Shown here: positions 1-57,137 of the stretch, one piece after another
Layout of the letters: every line of letters starts with the position of its first letter
Numbering within the stretch: the first letter of the stretch is position 1
Sequence record: NC_111505.1
Source of the DNA: a phage
Reading direction: 5' to 3' (one strand)
Length of the DNA: 64,000 bases
Made by a program: the position numbers and the translations under genes
The notes under the pieces: generated by a model
Database searches by the model: none
What the model was told of the DNA's origin: nothing
Seen by the model: the letters and a program-made list of their open reading frames with translations, nothing else

Positions 1-2222
1 CAGTCTCAGTTTTGGACCATAAACGACATCCTCTGGGTGCTCAAAAGAAACATACTTTAAGTAGATTGTTGGGTCACCGTAGGTGCCATCACAAACACTT
101 TTGTGCATGTTTTCGCCAAGATCTAGACGAAGCCCTGTCACCACTTTAGACGTGTCGGTGAATTTGTCTGTTAAATCAAATTCATACCACCACCATCCAC
201 CACCAAGCATAAATTTCTTGCATCGAGCATTGTCTGTATCAGATATTCTCTTATCCCCTGCAAAAGGTGAATCAGCAAACTGATAATGCAGAGCAGTCTC
301 GAATAAATGTGTTGAGGTTCCGTTTTCTGCAAGAACTTGCTTACCTATTAAGTCGCACTTAATGATCATCACAACACGTTTGTACCCGTTTGTTACTGGA
401 ACTTGCATAGACATGGATGTCCCATCCATGTTTGATCTCAGCACGGTCATGACGATATAAGGGTCAACGGCATTGCCCAGAGTTTCAGGACCAGGGATTA
501 TCTTGTACTTCTTAACCTGCCCCATAAACCTGTCACTGGCGTAAGTTGCAGCCTCGAAGCAAGATCCTCCATTAGGTAGTTCGCCAGGACCCCAGAAAAA
601 TGCGCCATAACAGTTATAAAACCACTTGTTAGGATCGTATTTGTTCTTGAAGGTCTGAACCTCGTTAGCCTGTTTTGTCAAGAAAACCTGAGTATCTGTG
701 AAGATTGCAGGATTCACTCTTGCCTGTCGATCAGCATATCCAGGTTGGTTAAACCACTGATTGCAAGAATAGTCCCGCATATAGTCATAATCAGAGTATT
801 TATTGTTTGCATCCTCGTTCCAACACATATTAAGGTTGGTGCCGCCCATGCACACAATATATTCTTCAACGTATTTATCACTTCGGGTGGGAATACCTAC
901 GAACCATCTATTAACAGGTTCGTTCCAAGCAGTACGCTCATCCTTAACGCAGATTGCAATCCAGTCATGTGTCCCTGTTTTCTTGCACACATCGCGCTTC
1001 ATACCGTAGTAGAATTCTTTAGTATTTGGCTCAGGTGCACTTATCAGGTAACTCCACGCCTGGTCTGCATATGTTCCGTTGGTGCGAGGGTCATGATCAA
1101 AGGCATACATGATGATTCTTTCTCCACCAAGATGTTCACCAAGGGTGACTTTGATGTTCACATCCCCGTAACCGTTGCGAACAACATCCATATTATCAAT
1201 AGAAATGCCTCTAGGAGTGTAGGCAATTTTCAGTGAGTTATCCTCACTAGTGCCACCAAGGGTGATCCCAATATTGTTTGTCGTCCCGTCAGCATATCTT
1301 ACTGTAGCTTCCCAGCGTATTCCGAAATATCCTACGTCATGGCTGACAATTTTTAATGTACGAGCACCAGAGTTAGGTTTTCCAGGATCAGGCCAAGGGT
1401 TTGGGTGTTCGTGAACCGTCAACGATGTCCCGTTTTGTTCGTTGACCTGCAACATTTTACCACCCCTTCCGTTTGGGTTGAACTCCCATAGGGCCTGTGT
1501 CTGCACCAAGTTATCATAGGTATTCCGTCGCTGACTATAAATCTCTTGGGTAACATCATAAGTTACTGATCCAGCATCCATTCTATGGAGTCTGACCATA
1601 TACGATGTATCCCCTTCTACTGCAGGCTGGGCCGCATTTAGTCCAAAGTATACAGTGTCATTAACATGGAACTGTTTGTTTCTACCGGCAGTATGCCATT
1701 TACCATCAGACGGATACGCCGGAACAATAGTGTTCCAGTTCAAAGTCCTTGTTGTGTGGGTCCTGCCTGTGCCATGTTTGTCATGATAGGTTATTTTTAC
1801 AGAGTACAGACCACGTCTGTTAACATTCCTGTTATACTGGGTAACAATAACTTCGTTGGCCCCACCGTGGTTCCAGTTAGTAGAGAATTGGTAATTCGCA
1901 TCTGTAACAACCGTGCCTGCAGCATTTACCAGTTCAATCTTGTCAATAATGAACGTAGCACCCTCTGGCTGAGGCTTTAATTTCATCTTGACCGTATCAC
2001 CAATGTAAATATTGCTAACGCTGCTAACACCGTTAACGTCGAAAATATCATCAACACCCCAACTGTCTACTGGGACATTTTTATACCAATTCTCAGGGAC
2101 CTCCGTGAACCCTTGGCTATTAAGTCTGCCGCCAAACAGGTTATTAGATCCTGCAAAACTTCCCCTCGGGATGCCTGACCACCAAAGTTTGCCATTAACA
2201 ACAGTAAAGGTTCCTAAAAAAA
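1..2222 (-). CDS. tail fiber/tailspike protein, distal portion, truncated by window start; +1 frame relative to ORF 2195-3409 and probably the same gene
   Basis: My translation of the minus strand is stop-free from the A7 tract (2216-2222) down to position 1 (...GTFTVVNGKLWWSGIPRGSFAGSNN...MKLKPQPEGATFIIDKIELVNAAG...). Absent from the ORF track because no stop lies inside the window. First in-frame ATG is at 1984-1986. Confidence 0.55.
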
Positions 2223-3409
2223 CCTTCTCTGTGAATGCCTTGGAAATAAACACTTTCTGTCCAGCTAACTGGGAGGCGTTGCTCAACGTATTTGGCTGTG
2301 GCAAGAGCTTGATAGTGGATAAAATTGGCCCTAGGGCTATTGTTTGCAGATTGTGCGCCAATATCATTGCAAAGGTTGCGAGAGAATCCACGGTACTGCT
2401 TAGTACCATTGTTGAAGAAAATGCCACTTGTGCCGTACCCACGAGCCATTATTACCTCATGGGTGTAGGTGATATTCAAGGCACGCCATGTATCATCTCC
2501 CCAAACATCTTGCCCGTAGAATACGTTAACAAGTTGCTGGTCATCAGGTCTGTGCATTCTTTGTGTTACAACCACTGCCCCGTTCGGACCGCACATGAAC
2601 CCTTTCCACTCCTCATCTGTAGGAATGCCCCTCAAATCGTCACGGGTAATCTGAGCGGGGGGCCAAACGAGAGTGTTTCTACTATTGTTTCTCAGAAAGT
2701 CATATCCAGCAATCCAGAAACCTCTAGGACCACCGAAAATAACAGAGTTATCATGCACCTCACAGTTAATGCTTGGGTTTTTCCAAGGACCTGTTTCAGG
2801 ATTTTCCGATGTTTCACCAATCTTTACAGGGGTTGCATGCTGGTTTTTATCCACATGCAAAGACCCGTAGGTGTTGTTACCAGATCCGTACAAGTGTAAA
2901 ATGCCAGTGCCTTCTGCCTCTGCCATAACCCAGACGGTGTTGTTAATACCACCCATCACCTCAACAAGGCGCTCTGGGTGGGTGTCAAGGTGCAATCCTT
3001 TAACGATTTGTTCAGGAAGAGGTGTCCACTCCCTTACACAAACATCATTACCGCCTGCAGCATCAGACCCAATAAGCCCTGCAGTACAGCCGATGTAGAA
3101 AAACTGATTATCAAAAGTTCGGATCACAAACGCACGGTCTGCTCTCCACACATGATCAACGTTCCAGGCAGCCTCATTAGGGTAGTTTATCGTGTCAAGA
3201 TCCCCAGTCCTACACTCCCCGAACCTGTTGTACCCTGTGATATTAAGCTGACCATTGTCAAAAAGTATAGCTAAGCTATTTACATAGGCTACTGTAGTGC
3301 TTGTACCGTCACTGTTGTCTATTGGGTATGACAGAACAGCAAGTTCCTTAACTCCACCCCTCTTATCGAGGAAATGACGACCAAGTTTTAGCAAAGGGAT
3401 TGGAAGCAT
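2195..3409 (-). CDS. tail fiber/tailspike protein, N-terminal portion (404 aa), ends at stop just after an A7/T7 homopolymer
   Basis: ORF track 2195..3409; protein-like composition; ATG at 3407-3409; lies in a run of fiber genes. Confidence 0.55.
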   Translation of the reverse strand: MLPIPLLKLGRHFLDKRGGVKELAVLSYPIDNSDGTSTTVAYVNSLAILFDNGQLNITGYNRFGECRTGDLDTINYPNEAAWNVDHVWRADRAFVIRTFDNQFFYIGCTAGLIGSDAAGGNDVCVREWTPLPEQIVKGLHLDTHPERLVEVMGGINNTVWVMAEAEGTGILHLYGSGNNTYGSLHVDKNQHATPVKIGETSENPETGPWKNPSINCEVHDNSVIFGGPRGFWIAGYDFLRNNSRNTLVWPPAQITRDDLRGIPTDEEWKGFMCGPNGAVVVTQRMHRPDDQQLVNVFYGQDVWGDDTWRALNITYTHEVIMARGYGTSGIFFNNGTKQYRGFSRNLCNDIGAQSANNSPRANFIHYQALATAKYVEQRLPVSWTESVYFQGIHREGFFRNLYCC

Positions 3410-3457
3410 TGTGTTCTCCAGATAAGAAAACCGCCCCGTCAGGAGCGGTCAGATATA

Positions 3458-5203
3458 TTAACGTTGTGCAATAACCACATCCACAATATCACCAACACCA
3501 CAATATGTCAATTGTAGCAAGGTAACGCTGTTGGCTTTGTTGTTAATGACAGGGGTAGCCGACAGTATGGCATATTTATCGTGCAAAGTCACGTTGTGGC
3601 CTACAGCATCTTGAATGACATAGATGATTGCAGTAAACGGGTAAGGTTTATCTTCAGCCGATGTTCCAGGCCATTGGCCTATTGTAAAATCCCCTTTCGC
3701 GTGGACAACATACATACTGGCCTGCCCGTTAGGTGTCCATGTCCCACTCGATGCTTCAACCTCCTCTAAGTCAAAGTCTACTTTTCCTGCGTGGAAAGTA
3801 GGGGCAGTGATGGTTTTACCAGCCTCAATTCCTTGAGAGGTGGTTATCTTACCGCTGGAGTTAATACCATTACAAACAAAGTTGACATTAGAGAAGTCTG
3901 GTAGCCACCCAGTCACTGTGCCGGATATTTCAAGGTTATGAAGGCGTGTTGTTCCTGTGCCGTTGTCATTTAAGCTAACATCGCCATTTACCTGCAAGTT
4001 CCTGGTAACGTTGCAGTTTTCAGAGTTTGCAGTCGTTGCAGTTAAAGTAGTGGTTGTCAGCTCGGTAATTACACCTTTGTTGGCTGTAAGTCCCTCTCCT
4101 TCAAAAGTTGCACGCTCATTGACTCTTAGGGTATTCAGAGATATGTTTTGGATAGATGCTGTACCTCGAATAACTACAGATCCGCCAACCTCTAAATCGC
4201 CATTGATCAGTGCATCCCCCGTGCTTTCAATATAGCTAGGGTAGATCATGGTGCCATCTACAGAGTAGGTTATCCCTGTAACGGTACCTGTCACCTCAAG
4301 GTTCTTAACCCTGGTGGTCCCAGCAACCTGTAATGTTGGTTCGGTTGCTGCCTTCATGGCATTACCACGGATGTACACGTAGTCAAAAAAGTTATTACCC
4401 AGACCATCAAAATGTACATCGTTATTATTAGCCACCGGTTTCCCAGAAGTTATAGTGTCAGCTATAACCCTGTGGGTGGACACTTCATGGGGTTGCAGCT
4501 CTGTACTTCTCCAGTCTGCATGCTTAGGATCGCTCCACGCAAAAGTAAGTGTAGAAGTATTTGCCGTGAGGATTAGATTCCTAAAGCGTGCAGTAGAATC
4601 TGCTCCATTAACAGGCCCATGTAAGGTGAGTGTGCCCCCAACTATGGTGTTAGCAAGTTCTGTAAGACCTTTTACCACCAAAGACCCTACAGTAACCTTC
4701 ATCCCCTCCATAGCTTTAAATATGCTATCCACATAGTCCACAACAAACTCTGTGTTTGCTATAGACTCGGACTTATCGTCCATTGGAGGTGTAGGTACTC
4801 GCGGGTCACCTTCGAATCTTGGGCTGTTAAGTTTTGCGTAGTATTTTGCCATTACTGCAGAATCGGTATATAATCTCCAGTTCGGAGATTGTGAAGGATC
4901 TGCTGGCATCCTAACCGGGTTAGATTTTGATGCTGCTGGGGCGTACCACCACTGAGGGCCTGTATCCCCTTTAAACTCATACAACTGGTTAAAAACTGTT
5001 GTGGATGCACCATACGCCCAAGGGATTGGTGGCGTTTTAAAATAAAGGGTGTCAAGCATGGCTTTTCGTACCGTAGGGATGGTGGTCCCATCCTCTACGA
5101 CAACTTCATCCACAGCGTTACCGTTGACAATCAGGTGCAAACGTTCAGAATCAACAATTACTTGATCTACCGCCTGCTCAAAGCTTGTCATGTCTTGCGC
5201 CAT
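3458..5203 (-). CDS. tail fiber protein (581 aa)
   Basis: ORF track; Thr/Gly/Asn/Val-rich beta-type composition typical of fibers; position in fiber cluster. Confidence 0.55.
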   Translation of the reverse strand: MAQDMTSFEQAVDQVIVDSERLHLIVNGNAVDEVVVEDGTTIPTVRKAMLDTLYFKTPPIPWAYGASTTVFNQLYEFKGDTGPQWWYAPAASKSNPVRMPADPSQSPNWRLYTDSAVMAKYYAKLNSPRFEGDPRVPTPPMDDKSESIANTEFVVDYVDSIFKAMEGMKVTVGSLVVKGLTELANTIVGGTLTLHGPVNGADSTARFRNLILTANTSTLTFAWSDPKHADWRSTELQPHEVSTHRVIADTITSGKPVANNNDVHFDGLGNNFFDYVYIRGNAMKAATEPTLQVAGTTRVKNLEVTGTVTGITYSVDGTMIYPSYIESTGDALINGDLEVGGSVVIRGTASIQNISLNTLRVNERATFEGEGLTANKGVITELTTTTLTATTANSENCNVTRNLQVNGDVSLNDNGTGTTRLHNLEISGTVTGWLPDFSNVNFVCNGINSSGKITTSQGIEAGKTITAPTFHAGKVDFDLEEVEASSGTWTPNGQASMYVVHAKGDFTIGQWPGTSAEDKPYPFTAIIYVIQDAVGHNVTLHDKYAILSATPVINNKANSVTLLQLTYCGVGDIVDVVIAQR

Positions 5204-42272: not shown

Positions 42273-43058
42273 TTAGATAAAACGCTTGAACATAGAAGGT
42301 GATGAGATTGATGGAATCACACAAGGCAGCGCTACCTCCTCTTTCTCCAGGAAATTAATCGCAGAAGCTACACAGTCGGCCCAGTCGTCTTTTCTGTTAA
42401 ATGTTGATCTTTCCCCGTTGAACTTTTCAAGTTCAGTCAAAAATGCTTCCAAAGTGTCAGGATGGAAACTGGATTTTACAATCCTCACCATTCCTTGTTG
42501 GGCAAGATTGGCAAAAGGTGAGAACCTTGTCAGTTTAGATTTGTTGGAAGGCATCGGATCTTCTTCAACCCTGAACCCTTCGGCGAGCAAGGATCTGGAC
42601 GAGGTTAAGAACTCACTCTTACCTGCCTGACCGGGGTCCACAGAAAATACGATTATGCAATCATCTCCATCAAACTGCGCCTGTTTCCTGATGATCACAT
42701 CTCGTTCCCCAGCCTTTTTACAGAACTTACCTTCCAGACCTGTGGAATACCTACCGTCATCCACGTTCTCAGGACAATAATCCCCGGACAGGTAATAAAA
42801 ACCGTCGCTATCTTTACTTACCTTAACACTGGCAGTAAAGTCAGGAAATTTATTACCGGAAGTTCTCTCGGTTCCTGCCTTATCCCATGCCCTGCAAGAT
42901 ACTGATCCAAGAGGTACTCTATCGGCATCACGAAGGAAAGATCTTTGGAAATAGTTTGCACCCTCAGGTTTGGCAAACCAGTTGCCATGAAGAAGCTGGG
43001 CTTTTTCAAGCTCTGGTAGACCTTCAAGGAAAGCAAGGTATTCTGGGTTGTCTCTCAA
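42273..43058 (-). CDS. terL: terminase large subunit, C-terminal nuclease domain (second exon-like segment)
   Basis: RNase-H-like terminase nuclease motifs (IIVFSVDPGQAG ... DDWADCVA); ORF-track start is a TTG, so the reading frame may extend upstream to a splice junction. Confidence 0.7.
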   Translation of the reverse strand: MRDNPEYLAFLEGLPELEKAQLLHGNWFAKPEGANYFQRSFLRDADRVPLGSVSCRAWDKAGTERTSGNKFPDFTASVKVSKDSDGFYYLSGDYCPENVDDGRYSTGLEGKFCKKAGERDVIIRKQAQFDGDDCIIVFSVDPGQAGKSEFLTSSRSLLAEGFRVEEDPMPSNKSKLTRFSPFANLAQQGMVRIVKSSFHPDTLEAFLTELEKFNGERSTFNRKDDWADCVASAINFLEKEEVALPCVIPSISSPSMFKRFI

Positions 43059-44049
43059 GCAGACAGGATTATCGAATCCTTATATTCAAAGGTGGTCGCA
43101 ACACCACCCTCCGCACCATTACGTGCTGCTGCATGTTACCATGCAGAGTAGACTATATCACCACCCATCTCAGGGTGCTTCGCTTTTCGAGCGCCATAAG
43201 CTTGCGCCCTACTCCCTCTCGGGATAGTCGTTGAACTACATTACCAATCGTAATTGTTTGAAATATAGGTGTAAGTCTTACGGTCTTTTATTCCTTTAAC
43301 AACACTAAAACTTACACCCCACTTTTTAGCTATTTTATTTACACACAAAACCCTATCACTGAGATCTTCGCAGATACCTATTATCTTGTGCTCACTTATC
43401 CTATTAGAGGTTGGCACTTTTCTAAAGTTAAACTCTTTAGAAATATCCGGGTATACTGAGCCATTCTTTATACCACTTACAAGCGGTTGATTGACACCAA
43501 ACATTTCACAAATGTCTTTTACCCTTGCACCTTGCTCTAACAGTCTACATATTTCAAGGGCAGTAGCATCATCTAGGGACCTGTATTTATTGACATAGTC
43601 CTTTTTAAGTCCCATTTCATGAGCATGATGTGTGTTTTCCTCAGGTGTTGTCCACTCAAGGTTCCATGCGGCGTTATTTAACTTATTGCCATCAAGGTGA
43701 TTTACTTGAGTTTTCACGCTAGGATTATCATTATCAACAAAAGTCATAGCAATAACTCTGTGAACGAGCACTTGGAACTTTTTACCGTCCTCGCACAAAG
43801 TTACCATAGCATAGCCAGTCTTTTTCTGCACATTAGGATGGAGGAATTTATTAGAATACAGACTGTAAATTCTGCCATCGTATGTAGCACAATAATGATT
43901 GTAGCCTAAAAAGCCTAAATTTTTCATTTCAAACATCTCCCTACTACAGGTTCGGAAGGGTAATTATAGCTGCTGATTGTCCGTTTAGCAATCGGATTTT
44001 CCAGCAATTAACGAAGTTATTCGACGTGCATTTCTGCACGAAGCCACTA
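43059..44049 (-). mobile_element. intervening sequence in terL carrying the HNH ORF (candidate group I intron)
   Basis: About 990 nt separate the ATPase and nuclease ORFs; flanks 43059-43240 and 43937-44049 are GC-rich with multiple hairpins and no long ORF. Confidence 0.5.
43241..43936 (-). CDS. HNH homing endonuclease (231 aa) inserted within terminase large subunit gene
   Basis: HNH motif (VNHLDGNKLNNAAWNLEWTTPEEN...HH) plus C-terminal DNA-binding-like region; flanked by the two terminase halves. Confidence 0.8.
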   Translation of the reverse strand: MFEMKNLGFLGYNHYCATYDGRIYSLYSNKFLHPNVQKKTGYAMVTLCEDGKKFQVLVHRVIAMTFVDNDNPSVKTQVNHLDGNKLNNAAWNLEWTTPEENTHHAHEMGLKKDYVNKYRSLDDATALEICRLLEQGARVKDICEMFGVNQPLVSGIKNGSVYPDISKEFNFRKVPTSNRISEHKIIGICEDLSDRVLCVNKIAKKWGVSFSVVKGIKDRKTYTYISNNYDW

Positions 44050-44799
44050 TCATTTAATGGTTGCGCCTATAAACGAGAATGACAACGGTCTTGGCTTGAT
44101 TTCCACACCTAGTCCATTGACCGTGGTGTATTTCTCTATTAACTCCTCTTTAGAGTCTCCCCAGATAAACTCACCGTCGCGTCGGATAAAATATCTTTTC
44201 TTACCACATTTCTCCGGATCTGGATACCCTTCATCGTCCAACCACCACCTAACCAGTTTGGCAAGCATGTGTTCTGAGTCGGGGTTACAACTGATAACCA
44301 TTCTTGATGGATACTTTGACTGAGATCGCAGACGAGACATCAAATAGTCTATCTGCTCCCATTCGAATTGCGTGCCTTCATCGAAGCAAACCATGGTGTA
44401 CTCAAGGCCTTGATGGTTAAGCTTATCTTGGACATACTCCATGTGGCAGTATTTTACAACAGCCCCCTTTTTGCTCCTGTCCCACTTGCCAGTGCTCGGA
44501 TCAAACCGTGGAAAAATAAATTTATGATCCTTCTCTCTAAATTTTGGCTTGATGTTCTCAGGGAGATCGCTGTAGATAGCTACTGCTTTAGGCCATAGAC
44601 CTCCTTCACCCTCCAGCTGCGGGGTTGTTCTTCGGAACATAACCACAGAGCTGTGTGGGTCATCAATAATTTTAAGCGGCATCAACTGCAGGAGGAACGA
44701 CTTACCTGAACCAGCCGCACCACCAATGACAAGAATGTCTGCATCGTTTTCTAGGATCATCTTCTGCTTTTCAGAACACGGTCCGTAAATCTTAGACAT
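44050..44799 (-). CDS. terL: terminase large subunit, N-terminal ATPase domain (first exon-like segment)
   Basis: Walker A (VIGGAAGSGKS) and Walker B (MVCFDEGTQF); ends at TGA 44050-44052. Confidence 0.8.
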   Translation of the reverse strand: MSKIYGPCSEKQKMILENDADILVIGGAAGSGKSFLLQLMPLKIIDDPHSSVVMFRRTTPQLEGEGGLWPKAVAIYSDLPENIKPKFREKDHKFIFPRFDPSTGKWDRSKKGAVVKYCHMEYVQDKLNHQGLEYTMVCFDEGTQFEWEQIDYLMSRLRSQSKYPSRMVISCNPDSEHMLAKLVRWWLDDEGYPDPEKCGKKRYFIRRDGEFIWGDSKEELIEKYTTVNGLGVEIKPRPLSFSFIGATIK

Positions 44800-45902: not shown

Positions 45903-45948
45903 TGGTCTCCACGGAGTGATTCGAACACTCGACCTCCTGATCCCAAAG
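45903..45948 (-). tRNA. 3' half of split tRNA-like gene: anticodon loop (UGG, Pro-like), variable loop, T-arm, acceptor 3' strand and CCA
   Basis: Minus-strand CTTTGGGATCAGGAGGTCGAGTGTTCGAATCACTCCGTGGAGACCA: T-arm GAGTG/TTCGAAT/CACTC, acceptor CGTGGAG, encoded CCA. Confidence 0.5.
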
Positions 45949-46290
45949 TTATGGTAGTTCTAAAAGTCCTGCATGTACGGCAGCATGACAATTTCTACAA
46001 AGTAATACACAGTTTTTAATTTCATTATCAATTCTTTGCAGACTCCAACCTCTCATTTGAGCAAATTTAGAGTCTTTAATTTTAGGATCTAAATGGTGAA
46101 TATCTAAAGAAACAATCCATTTATCGAACCCACAATTGATACATTTACCGCCTAACTTGTCTACAGCATACTGTCGTTTCTGCCTCCCAAGATTCATGGT
46201 GTACTCATTGTGACATTTCCCACATATAGTCTTTTTATGACCATAAAATTTACATGGATCTTCTTCCCCACAACGACTGCATTTGTGCAT
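45949..46290 (-). CDS. HNH endonuclease with Zn-ribbon (113 aa) lying between two halves of a tRNA-like gene
   Basis: CxxC...CxxC plus HNH motif (DIHHLDPKIKDS...NCVLLCRNCH); ATG at 46288-46290, stop at 45949-45951. Confidence 0.75.
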   Translation of the reverse strand: MHKCSRCGEEDPCKFYGHKKTICGKCHNEYTMNLGRQKRQYAVDKLGGKCINCGFDKWIVSLDIHHLDPKIKDSKFAQMRGWSLQRIDNEIKNCVLLCRNCHAAVHAGLLELP

Positions 46291-46300
46291 CTTTGATTAT

Positions 46301-46325
46301 CTCTACCAAGCTGAGCTACGCGGAG
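46301..46325 (-). tRNA. 5' half of split tRNA-like gene: acceptor 5' strand and D-arm
   Basis: Minus-strand CTCCGCGTAGCTCAGCTTGGTAGAG; acceptor CTCCGCG pairs with CGTGGAG of the 3' half (six Watson-Crick pairs plus one G-U). Confidence 0.5.
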
Positions 46326-46492: not shown

Positions 46493-46591
46493 GGTGCTAG
46501 GTGATGGAATCGAACCATCTATGTATTCAACGACTACCTCGTCTATTTTCAGGATTAAAAATCCTCGCCCTTGCCAAAGGGCTTACCTAGC
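46493..46591 (-). tRNA. atypical tRNA-like element (~97 nt), anticodon ambiguous (possibly UUU)
   Basis: Good acceptor (GCTAGGT/ACCTAGC), D-arm (GCCC/GGGC) and T-arm (GATGG/TTCGATT/CCATC), but anticodon arm is a near-palindrome (AGGATTTTTAATCCT) and about 30 nt lie between anticodon arm and T-arm. Confidence 0.4.
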
Positions 46592-55912: not shown

Positions 55913-56629
55913 ATGATTAATTTCTTCTTCAATGATAATTTTGCATTTTGGTACAAAGATGGGGAGCTAGTTTGGACAAAGAATCATTATAGAGGCCGAG
56001 GTAAAAATCAACTCTTCATAAAAGCTGGCACAAAAGCTGGTTGTAATGATGCACAAGGGTATGTTATAATCAACTCTCATAAAGGTGGTGATAAGAAGCG
56101 TCATAGAATTATTTACGACATGTTTTATAACTCTTTAACAAAAAACTTTCTTGTCAGGCATTTAAATGATATAAAAGGCCAGGATAATATAGAAAATCTT
56201 TCTATGGGCACCTACAGTGATAACAACAAGGACCGTATAAGAAATAATTTACTCCCGAAAAATAACCCGCACGGTAACTTAGGAGTTTATAAGAAATGTG
56301 GTTTATGGTATGCAGTATATAACACCCTCGAAGGAGATAGGTTTGCTGGGTACTTTAAGACCAAAGATGAGGCTGTAGAGGCAAGAAAACAGCTAGTTTC
56401 AGGTACTTATAAAGGCAAAATACTAAAACTTAATAACACATCTGGGTGTACAGGTGTTAAATGGAGACACGATACTGACAAGTGGCAAGTTCAGATTGCT
56501 GAAAACAGCAAAAGGTATCATTTGGGGCAATACACGGAGTGGTGGGATGCTGTATGCGTCAGAAAATCCGCAGAATATGCAAAACATGATGATTCGTTGG
56601 AAGAGTGGTTTAATCGGAGGTTTAAATGA
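55913..56629 (+). CDS. HNH-AP2 homing endonuclease
   Basis: HNH motif (VRHLNDIKGQDNIENL) followed by two AP2-like modules (GVYKKCGLWYAVY...; TGVKWRHDTDKWQVQIAE...); ATG 55913 with GGAGAG upstream. Confidence 0.7.
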   Translation: MINFFFNDNFAFWYKDGELVWTKNHYRGRGKNQLFIKAGTKAGCNDAQGYVIINSHKGGDKKRHRIIYDMFYNSLTKNFLVRHLNDIKGQDNIENLSMGTYSDNNKDRIRNNLLPKNNPHGNLGVYKKCGLWYAVYNTLEGDRFAGYFKTKDEAVEARKQLVSGTYKGKILKLNNTSGCTGVKWRHDTDKWQVQIAENSKRYHLGQYTEWWDAVCVRKSAEYAKHDDSLEEWFNRRFK

Positions 56630-57105
56630 AGCTAGATAAAAATGTACAATTGAGAGCATTTTTTTCGATGATTTCACACTCAGAAGGTACTGACAGGTAT
56701 GGTGGCGAAGATGCTTCGTACCACATCCTTGTTGGTGGAAAATACATAGAGGATCTCAGCAGGCATCCCGGTATTTATGTCAAATTAAGACCAGGCCTTA
56801 CCTCTTCAGCATTTGGCAGATACCAAATTCTGGAGAAATACGCTAAGCATTACATGAAGCAGCTTGGCTTAAGAGATTTTGGTCCGGCAAGTCAGGATGC
56901 CATAGCAAAACAGTTGATCCGCGAATGTAAAGCCCTTGATGACATTTATGAAGGAAGGATCCGTTCAGCTATCTATAAATGCCGTAGCCGTTGGGCAAGT
57001 TTCCCACCACCACCGGGGGCTGGTAAACTGTATGATCAGCGTGTAGAAAACATAGAGAAGATGCTGGACGTCTTCCGAAAAGCCGGAGGCACAGTACTGG
57101 ATTAA
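56626..57105 (+). CDS. endolysin, lambda R-like lytic transglycosylase
   Basis: Strong resemblance to lambda R as I recall it (...SEGTD...GRYQ...KQLGL.DF...SQD...GGTV...). Confidence 0.75.
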   Translation: MKLDKNVQLRAFFSMISHSEGTDRYGGEDASYHILVGGKYIEDLSRHPGIYVKLRPGLTSSAFGRYQILEKYAKHYMKQLGLRDFGPASQDAIAKQLIRECKALDDIYEGRIRSAIYKCRSRWASFPPPPGAGKLYDQRVENIEKMLDVFRKAGGTVLD

Positions 57106-57108
57106 TGG

Positions 57109-57137
57109 TTGACATAACCACACGGACGTGGTATTGT
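57109..57137 (+). promoter_or_regulatory. sigma70-like promoter
   Basis: TTGACA 57109-57114, 17-nt spacer, TATTGT 57132-57137, then GGGAGGG RBS and ATG 57169. Confidence 0.5.

Follow-up and report, generated by a model that had tools for sequence, protein, structure and literature searches.

A single extra T interrupts a lateral tail fibre gene, often broken in related phages, in a Vequintavirus genome sequence

The window, which is the whole 64-kb stretch of DNA analysed here, derives from a Vequintavirus (an rV5/FV3-like E. coli myophage) with approximately 95.5% identity to FV3, and its large lateral tail fibre gene is split into two reading frames by one additional T in a short T run. The affected gene belongs to a type that laboratory growth does not require, as shown for an ortholog, and that is often broken in related phages. 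We consider it probable that this is a genuine and very recent slippage knock-out of a disposable lateral fibre gene, similar to that of stf in lambda PaPa, and a real mutation is favoured over a sequencing or assembly error. We infer that the extra T is present in the phage DNA itself and not merely in the assembly. As judged from the sequence, no programmed mechanism is at work: either the gene has been knocked out in an ordinary way or a base was miscalled.

The coordinates of the interrupted gene and its surroundings are summarized in Table 1. On the minus strand, the junction reads CAC AGA GAA GGT TTT TTT AGG AAC CTT TAC TGT TGT TAA. The start codon of the 5´ fragment is preceded by GGAG (3419..3416), and the 404-aa product is native to F397, after which seven out-of-frame residues (FRNLYCC) lead to the TAA, which is reached seven codons past the T7 run. 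The +1 frame is open not only from the run to position 1 but also upstream of the run, as far as TAA 2451..2449. Deletion of one T yields 1,136 stop-free codons across the junction, including REGFLGTFTVVNGKLWW. When the FV3 ortholog is aligned by tblastn, aa 1–398 match at 99.7% identity in one frame and aa 397–1135 at 93.5% in the +1 frame; by these sequence measures, the two-frame alignment together with the long open +1 frame is far beyond chance. The initial annotation had described a one-base frameshift that splits a large tail fibre gene, with an ORF (2195–3409) ending at a TAA shortly after T7, a +1 frame open over more than 730 codons to the window start and a single protein of more than 1130 aa once a T is removed. 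All of this is borne out by the coordinates of the run (2222..2216) and the stop codon (2197..2195), the 741 codons measured, the length of the repaired frame and the orthologs, which are single CDSs with T6 in FV3.

Table 1. Features at the interrupted gp27-type gene (window positions)
Feature	Position	Strand	Remark
T7 homopolymer, coding strand (A7 on plus strand)	2216..2222	-	one T above FV3-type T6; frameshifting base
5´ fragment of gp27-type gene, 404 codons	2195..3409	-	ATG 3409..3407, TAA 2197..2195
Gene continuation in +1 frame, 741 open codons	1..2223	-	equals aa 397–1135 of 1,877-aa FV3 ortholog; runs off window start
Overlap zone, +1 frame already open 5´ of run	2224..2448	-	in-frame ATG/GTG/TTG without good Shine-Dalgarno
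Terminator-like hairpin between 581-aa fibre gene and gp27-type gene	3429..3450	-	consensus match only
Upstream neighbour, 581-aa lateral tail fibre protein	3458..5203	-	ortholog of FV3_00028 / rV5 gp28 ('with glycosidase domain')

The split gene is the ortholog of rV5 gp27, FV3_00027 and bas54_0041, a side (lateral) tail fibre, and its family (phrog_15684) is annotated as 'lateral tail fiber protein with intimin domain' or 'Ig-like domain-containing protein'. The 404-aa ORF covers profile positions 1–399 of 1878 of this family (E = 4.5e-278). In the relatives, the gene is a single CDS of approximately 5.63 kb encoding 1,875–1,878 aa (1,877 aa for the FV3-type protein). Synteny is kept: in the window and in the relatives, the gene closes the lateral tail fibre locus as its last large member and immediately follows the 581-aa fibre gene of the gp28 type. 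This neighbour is intact, shares 98.1% amino acid identity with FV3_00028 in one frame (tblastn) and serves as a synteny anchor. The gp27-type gene runs on for approximately 740 codons past window position 1; the FV3 ortholog has a Big_2/intimin-like Ig domain match at aa 1685–1734, and the corresponding part of the window gene lies beyond position 1. The window gene resembles the gp27 family in its high identity to FV3 in both parts and in its position after the gp28-type gene. In contrast, all but a few members of the family are a single ORF, and the window ORF is interrupted after codon 397.

Comparison with orthologous fibre genes, which had been proposed as a check, reveals an intact single frame in the relatives, and FV3 differs locally by its T6 run alone: over 300 nt around the junction, 299 positions match and the single gap is the extra T. 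The junction is read in one frame by 115 of 118 phage records, and 109 of 121 records cover, in one place, 80% or more of the complete FV3 protein. The T run is specific to one lineage. Twelve of 15 sampled relatives carry the interrupted sequence GGT TTC TTA, and the others carry GGT TTT TTA (T6), which encodes Gly-Phe-Leu. T6 occurs only in the FV3-type allele, where it derives from a synonymous TTC to TTT change, and is found in six records of the phages collection and one IMG/VR contig. The exact T7 allele has no match in the INPHARED phages collection, IMG/VR, GTDB genomes, JGI metagenomes or E. coli complete genomes, so that, absent from every collection searched, it is no conserved recoding or contingency site. 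For the repaired frame, dN/dS amounts to 0.067 in the part upstream of the junction and 0.052 in the downstream part (the latter versus SYGMH1); both halves are perfectly conserved and evolve under purifying selection, and the last ~700 nt of the gene inside the window are 100% identical to SYGMH1. Because the downstream part is intact with a dN/dS of approximately 0.05, the lesion is either very recent or artefactual.

At least eight other assemblies carry independent breaks in their gp27 orthologs. Five of these breaks are nonsense substitutions: W82 to TAG in nomine, W558 to TGA in Logan SRR22133733, Y617 to TAG in both ECP26 and magaca (independent, different alleles), and Q1439 to TAA in phita32. 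The gp27-type copies of ECO111 5-P, V18 and APECc02 are broken by an indel. As in the window, these independent isolates have otherwise intact genomes in which this one gene is disrupted; the breaks are all located elsewhere in the gene, and five are nonsense mutations rather than a homopolymer indel. We take all of these changes, which are no homopolymer artefacts, as natural recurrent inactivation, which counts for a real mutation in the window. The ortholog bas54_0041 is dispensable on E. coli K-12 according to published transposon data (bioRxiv 10.1101/2025.11.20.689424). Together with the disrupted orthologs, this supports the view that the fibre may likewise be dispensable for plaque formation in the window phage. 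The independent knock-outs in many deposited Vequintavirus genomes suggest that the gp27-type fibre is routinely selected against when phages are isolated and passaged through plaques on laboratory hosts. An amber-suppressor tRNA was considered as an explanation of the TAG alleles of the relatives and rejected, as the tRNA-Tyr(GTA) of magaca is ordinary.

For the knock-out, we propose that DNA polymerase slippage added one T to the lineage-specific T6 run of the gp27-type gene. The T7 stretch is a short mutable run and the sole A/T run of at least six bases in positions 1–3409, whereas the whole window has 37 of them; this counts in favour of a slippage mutation. Translation from ATG 3409 would stop at TAA 2197..2195 and produce a 404-residue N-terminal stub, and some 1,480 distal residues, the Ig-like/intimin-like domain among them, would be unmade or made in traces only. 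Phages of this group have several sets of lateral fibres, one of which would be missing from the virions, and the phage would remain viable because the fibre is dispensable on laboratory hosts. Fibre loss may even be favoured in plaque passage, as for the side tail fibres of lambda. Among the virion proteins that the Proteomics and morphogenesis section of the rV5 proteomics paper gives as detected, gp27 is absent.

The closest known parallel is the stf gene of lambda PaPa, in which Hendrix and Duda reportedly described a frameshift in 1992. In both phages, a short homonucleotide run that has gained or lost one base compared with intact relatives splits a large dispensable side fibre gene into two ORFs, and the phage is viable while wild relatives retain the intact gene. 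The window phage differs from lambda in being a myovirus with several fibre sets and in that its fibre belongs to another protein family. The lambda case is also experimentally proven (fibres absent, slower adsorption, larger plaques), whereas the window case is seen in the sequence. Among 21 low-adsorption lambda clones escaping plaques, 19 carried stf mutations, 15 of which were frameshifts, and nearly all of the indels were located in short homonucleotide runs (Gallet, Shao & Wang 2009, PMC2762979).

The main rival explanation is a sequencing or assembly artefact, in which T6 was overcalled as T7 or a minority variant was taken as the consensus and the real gene is intact with 1,877 aa. We regard this as the less probable reading, although a serious one. 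A one-base overcall in a 6–7-mer is the classic error of several sequencing platforms, and the lesion is such a change: a single-base difference in homopolymer length that is a singleton among approximately 120 related genomes and occurs in no collection searched, in a locus whose surrounding 300 nt show no other difference from FV3. An intact downstream frame and purifying selection on both halves are equally expected from an error. The T7 allele has no independent record, and the assembly index contains no entry for the 404-aa product or for the 581-aa protein encoded next to it. The deposits of V18 and APECc02 carry the long gene in several pieces, which may reflect poor sequencing. The quality of the assembly speaks against an error. 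Sixty-seven of 70 FV3 CDSs compared align in a single frame; FV3_00083 has no counterpart in the window, terL is split by an insert, and the gp27-type gene is the sole frameshifted gene among the 70 in 64 kb. The remaining coding A/T runs of 6–7 bases all keep the frame, and no run anywhere in the window is longer than 7. Three intergenic homopolymers differ in length from FV3, and two of the three match other phages, so the assembly does not look error-prone; the consistency of the homopolymers with the relatives argues against systematic miscalling. A random error among the 37 A/T runs of at least six bases would strike the gp27-type gene with a probability of ~1/37, whereas a tolerated real mutation is expected precisely in a dispensable, recurrently inactivated gene.

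Two readings in which the T7 run is functional are far less probable. Very unlikely is a recoding or leaky site, at which a +1 ribosomal shift on UUU_UUU_AGG or RNA polymerase slippage would yield the 404-aa stub together with some full-length fibre. In such a +1 shift, tRNA-Phe would slip while a slowly decoded AGG waits in the A site; in transcriptional slippage on U7, one U would be dropped and the frame restored. Programmed +1 frameshifting is known from E. coli prfB and yeast Ty1, and programmed transcriptional slippage from IS elements and Thermus dnaX. The window site resembles these in a slippery homopolymer that is followed by a potentially slow codon with the second frame open, and, loosely as at +1 sites, the slippery UUU and AGG are accompanied by a weakly Shine-Dalgarno-like GAAGG upstream. 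A +1 event within the run would give the wild-type sequence or a single L398F change; a junction peptide REGFLGTFTVVNGK would mean T6 DNA or a shift inside the run, and REGFFGTFTVVNGK a +1 shift at the last UUU. Homopolymers of seven bases also cause low-level transcriptional slippage in E. coli. In contrast to the known systems, the site in the window is unconserved, its run is shorter and the RNA fold shows no stimulatory structure: no relative has the two-frame layout, the run itself is missing from 12 of the 15 sampled relatives, and efficient programmed slippage typically takes approximately nine or more bases. With 157 of 859 Arg codons (18%), AGG is far from rare in this phage, which encodes a tRNA-Arg(UCU), and the RNA around the site has no excess of structure over shuffled controls (z = -0.73). 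A conserved programmed frameshift or slippage is rejected on the comparative data. A frameshift-suppressor tRNA was also considered and rejected. The candidate is a tRNA-like gene at 46493–46591 to which ARAGORN assigns a 4-base anticodon; in the Rfam alignment, this gene has an ordinary 7-nt loop with anticodon UUU and an insert of 26 nt in the variable region. FV3 and magaca, neither of which has a frameshift at the T-run site, carry the gene as well, so it is unrelated to T7.

Least probable of all is a contingency locus, at which the T6/T7 length would be kept as a switch that turns a host-range determinant reversibly ON and OFF. The gp27-type gene does encode a variable, host-dependent fibre (PMC8594841; bioRxiv 10.1101/2025.11.20.689424), a T7 to T6 reversion would restore its function, and a speculation by Gallet et al. 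sees the homonucleotide runs of lambda stf as a source of population-level polymorphism (PMC2762979). Against this, the tract is short and confined to the FV3-type allele in which the synonymous change created it, an out-of-frame length occurs in no other genome and long runs are not enriched in the gene; the tract is neither conserved as such nor polymorphic in length among isolates. The receptor-binding genes of Campylobacter phages contain hypermutable polyG tracts of approximately nine or more bases, which are conserved and polymorphic within stocks. There, as in the window, homopolymer length shifts a receptor-binding gene in or out of frame, whereas the tract of the window is T6/T7, lineage-specific and out of frame in one sequence. 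A looser version, in which T6/T7 is a reversible heritable switch of a disposable lateral fibre that may combine with low-level slippage at UUU_UUU_AGG, is improbable too, if a little less so than either of these. If it were true, FV3-type populations would be a standing mix of fibre-plus and fibre-minus virions, a form of bet-hedging between fast adsorption and escape from dense lawns, as Gallet et al. proposed for lambda stf. Of the causes offered in the initial annotation, sequencing or assembly error and a recent pseudogenizing mutation remain, and slippage-based host-range variation is unsupported as an evolved mechanism, since the run is absent from most sampled relatives, is only T6 in the FV3-type allele and was found as T7 in no other sequence.

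An independent downstream gene, the scenario that would have overturned the initial annotation, is unsupported: the downstream part has no credible ribosome-binding site and start, and its sequence is internal to the intact FV3 gene. That annotation placed the first in-frame ATG at 1984–1986, which holds downstream of the run, but ATG 2409 and ATG 2367 lie in the +1 frame upstream of it. Further candidates 5´ of the run are GTG 2442, 2427, 2391 and 2253, and none of the upstream candidates has a convincing Shine-Dalgarno sequence. GTG 2442 is a weak candidate with GAGGT 11 nt upstream, as are ATG 2409, 2367 and 1986, which have no Shine-Dalgarno sequence, and a consensus promoter scan for the downstream part gave nothing convincing.

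The two ORFs call for annotation as a single disrupted gene, either a pseudogene or a frameshifted CDS, and not as two tail fibre proteins, and gene callers may begin a spurious downstream ORF within the overlap zone. If the extra T is real, the isolate lacks one lateral fibre set, and its host range may be narrower or altered compared with FV3-like relatives, a point of interest for phage biology and therapy. The recurrent loss of the gp27-type gene across Vequintavirus genomes may matter more than this single lesion, and the suggested selection against the fibre would bear on the interpretation of host-range data from such stocks.

The single-sequence AlphaFold model of the 404-aa stub has a pLDDT of 39 and is unusable. 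A protein database search with the stub returned three clusters, none of the 404-aa type and one representing another truncated ortholog. Within the 5´ part, aa 44–199 show a weak, sub-threshold RCC1-like repeat signal.

The junction was read on the minus strand of window 1–3600, where it runs ...CAC AGA GAA GGT TTT TTT AGG AAC CTT TAC TGT TGT TAA. The initial annotation described an ORF that stops at a TAA shortly after the T7 run and a +1 frame that stays open for more than 730 codons to the window start. Both descriptions hold: the ORF has 404 residues and ends at that TAA, and the +1 frame comprises 741 open codons from 2223 to window position 1. Deletion of one T fuses the two parts into 1,136 codons without interruption, including REGFLGTFTVVNGKLWW, which agrees with the proposed single protein of more than 1130 aa, and the repaired gene contains no stop codon. 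From 2448 onward, before the T7 run is reached, the +1 frame is free of stop codons. Past the run, the first in-frame ATG is the one at 1986..1984, as had been noted, but starts in this frame also lie upstream of it (ATG 2409, ATG 2367 and several GTG and TTG codons); no good Shine-Dalgarno sequence was found for these upstream starts.

Positions of the fiber gene lesion and the terL parts in the window, and disruptions of gp27-type genes in other phages
Sequence	Feature	Position	Strand	Detail
Window	T7 homopolymer	2222..2216	minus	direct reading
Window	Stop codon TAA after T7	2197..2195	minus	direct reading
Window	404-residue ORF	3409..2195	minus	ATG 3409..3407, GGAG 3419..3416 upstream of ATG
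Window	terL parts flanking insert	44799..44056 and 43076..42276	minus	
nomine	gp27-type gene	W82		TGG to TAG
Logan SRR22133733	gp27-type gene	W558		TGG to TGA; contig in cluster of 77 member sequences
ECP26	gp27-type gene	Y617		TAT to TAG
magaca	gp27-type gene	Y617		TAT to TAG
phita32	gp27-type gene	Q1439		CAA to TAA
ECO111 5-P	gp27-type gene	near codon 1115		frameshifted
V18	gp27-type gene			fragmented, several pieces
APECc02 (hit H177)	gp27-type gene			fragmented, several pieces

Megablast searches with 1–3600 and 1–25000 matched 120–133 phage records, and the 25-kb query (1–25000) is about 95.5% identical to FV3; by sequence, the window is assigned to Vequintavirus as an rV5/FV3-like E. coli myophage. 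SYGMH1, FV3, EmilHeitz and rV5_ev147 each carry the homologous region as a single CDS of 5,634–5,637 nt; its annotation reads "Ig-like domain protein" or "lateral tail fiber protein with intimin domain", and it adjoins a 581-aa fiber gene on the downstream side of the latter. The broken gene is the ortholog of rV5 gp27, the final large lateral tail fiber gene of a locus that encodes three lateral fiber sets (BASEL paper, PMC8594841). PHROGs assigns the FV3 protein to phrog_15684, whose full-length profile has 1,878 positions, and the 404-aa ORF matches positions 1–399. The Big_2/intimin-like domain (aa 1685–1734 of the FV3 protein) lies beyond the window, and the N-terminal region shows a weak, sub-threshold RCC1-like repeat signal. 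Between the 581-aa (gp28-type) and gp27-type genes, consensus matching finds a 9-pair terminator-like hairpin with a T-rich tail after it (3429–3450, minus strand), and within the 3´ end of the gp28-type gene a promoter-like TTGACA-17-TATTGT with TG and 10 of 12 matches (3483–3511, minus strand); the last fiber gene may form a transcription unit of its own. Over the fiber locus, this E. coli Vequintavirus is 90–91% identical to 15–18 GenBank records (MG0656xx, e.g. MG065644.1) that are titled 'Campylobacter phage', flagged UNVERIFIED and listed with C. jejuni as host; these are probably mislabeled or contaminant genomes.

The sequence does contain the T7 run, and its initial reading as a large tail fiber gene broken by a frameshift is correct: the orthologs are one CDS, and FV3 has T6. 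Comparison with orthologous fiber genes, which had been suggested as a check, reveals that the frameshift is not conserved, as the repaired 151-aa junction peptide matched 118 phage records by tblastn, 115 of which cover the junction in one frame. Over the local 300 nt, FV3 differs from the window solely by one gap, T6 in place of T7. The Gly-Phe-Leu peptide is invariant in all 15 sampled relatives; in 12 of them, among which are rV5, FFH2, slur16, JeffSchatz, Murica, PDX and V18, the codons are GGT/GGC TTC TTA, without a homopolymer, and only FV3, rV5_ev147 and one IMG/VR contig use GGT TTT TTA. By exact-word search, six phage records carry the T6 allele (rV5_ev147, rV5_ev156, VB-EcoM-WM, BP9 and two entries for FV3). 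The T7 version has zero matches in the phages collection, IMG/VR, the GTDB genome collection and the JGI metagenomes, and the 404-aa product is absent from the assembly index. This allele distribution indicates that the T6 run is specific to one lineage, where it came from a synonymous substitution of TTC by TTT, and that T7 is a singleton. A conserved programmed frameshift, programmed transcriptional slippage at this site and an evolved contingency tract are thereby all ruled out. Slippage-based variation of host range, one of the alternatives initially offered, is unsupported as an evolved mechanism on the same grounds.

The dN/dS value relative to SYGMH1 is 0.067 upstream of the junction and 0.052 downstream, and the final ~700 nt of the in-window gene are identical to SYGMH1. 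The downstream part is without decay, and the frameshift is therefore either very recent or not real. To survey the assembly, all indels in the window–FV3 alignment were listed and 70 FV3 proteins were compared with the window by tblastn. A change of frame appears in the gp27 ortholog only; 67 other genes are collinear with FV3 in a single frame, and the remaining exceptions are terL, which is interrupted by an insert, and the HNH gene FV3_00083, which is missing. The window contains 37 A/T runs of at least 6 bases (maximum length 7), and the other coding runs are all in frame. Homopolymer length differs from FV3 by one base at three isolated sites, all of them intergenic; two match other phages (one HMD-6 and rV5_ev147, the other magaca), and the third lies within a locally divergent spacer. 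Given the in-frame coding runs and these two shared differences, systematic homopolymer miscalling is not seen in the assembly.

Loss of the gp27-type gene is biologically plausible on two independent lines, transposon data and disrupted orthologs in other assemblies. Transposon sequencing of the Vequintavirus Bas54 reveals that the ortholog bas54_0041 tolerates disruptive insertions (bioRxiv 10.1101/2025.11.20.689424). The gene is disrupted in about 7 of 60 sampled phage records, and real inactivation is common, because nonsense substitutions are not homopolymer artefacts. ECP26 and magaca share only 82.7% identity in the 150 nt around codon 617, where each is about 98–99% identical to a relative that keeps TAT, which indicates that the change of Y617 to TAG arose twice independently; each TAG allele is a singleton within the phages collection. 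No suppressor tRNA was found in magaca, in which codon 619 is GTG, the annotated start of a second CDS. This recurrent independent inactivation across Vequintaviruses, including Tyr617 to amber twice, is more interesting than T7, which is an ordinary event: either a base-calling error or one more case in which a disposable tail fiber gene is interrupted within a homonucleotide run.

A one-base change in homopolymer length that is unique and leaves its flanks intact is predicted by a real mutation and by a sequencing or assembly artefact alike. We consider an artefact a doubtful though appreciable possibility, since the assembly is otherwise clean and a random error among the 37 runs would fall in this gene about once in 37 cases. 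A real mutation that is tolerated, and possibly selected, is expected in exactly this dispensable, recurrently lost gene, at its sole run of at least 6 bases within the window. These points favor a real, recent slippage knock-out, which we regard as moderately probable. The closest documented analogue is laboratory lambda PaPa, which carries a frameshift in the side tail fiber gene stf. Among low-adsorption clones emerging when lambda with functional Stf leaves plaques, 19 of 21 carry stf mutations; 15 of the 19 are frameshifts, and nearly all indels fall in short homonucleotide runs (PMC2762979). The gene should be annotated as disrupted.

Leaky +1 recoding at T7, predicted to yield a trace of full-length product, is very improbable. 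With GAAGG ahead of it, UUU UUU AGG bears a loose resemblance to +1 shift sites, and a shift inside the run would restore the wild-type protein or an L398F variant. However, AGG makes up 18% of the phage Arg codons, the phage carries tRNA-Arg(UCU), the local RNA structure is unremarkable (z = -0.73), and the same context has no such role in FV3. Seven bases is also a short run for efficient transcriptional slippage. Translation from ATG 3409 would produce residues 1–397 followed by FRNLYCC. The N-terminus of a fiber protein is usually the particle anchor; the stub could be degraded, or could take up the attachment site without the distal receptor-binding part. Its single-sequence AlphaFold model is unusable (pLDDT 39). 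If the knock-out is real, virions would lack this fiber set and would still infect hosts where other fibers suffice.

An insert of ~980 bp (43077–44055), absent from FV3, divides the terminase large subunit gene terL at the point between aa 248 and 249 of the FV3 ortholog. The insert contains a 231-aa HNH endonuclease ORF (43936..43241; phrog_59, E = 6e-51; PF13392) and matches the group I intron model RF00028 below threshold at 43129–43337 (34.2 bits, gathering score 50; E = 1e-6). It probably represents a group I intron that carries a homing endonuclease. terL is also annotated as two CDSs ~350 nt apart in HMD-6 (L026 5394–7259) and magaca (L028 7518–9384). Because their break position differs from the insert site in the window, different intervening sequences appear to occupy different sites in Vequintavirus terL genes.

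At 45908–46325 (minus strand), an FV3-type tRNA-Pro(TGG) gene is interrupted in the anticodon stem. Conservation is complete (100%) over the first 25 nt (46325..46301) and the last 40 nt (45947..45908) of the gene, and 7 nt of the stem (CGCCTGA) are replaced by a 353-bp insert that encodes a 113-aa HNH endonuclease (46290..45952; PF01844, 23.8 bits); ARAGORN detects no intact tRNA-Pro in the window. An unusual tRNA-like gene of 97–99 nt at 46493–46591 (minus strand) is conserved in relatives, and its region is about 97% identical to FV3. ARAGORN reads it with a 4-base anticodon (atcc) or as Gln(ttg) with a 5-nt intron, and the Rfam tRNA model (37.5 bits) gives a normal UUUUUAA loop, with UUU as anticodon, plus a 26-nt variable-region insert; ARAGORN also finds it in magaca (L025 4071–4169, annotated 'tRNA-OTHER'). 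Window 55916–57109 does not align to FV3. The endolysin ortholog has only 73% protein identity to that of FV3, and the HNH endonuclease FV3_00083 is without counterpart, which looks like module exchange or differing homing endonuclease content.
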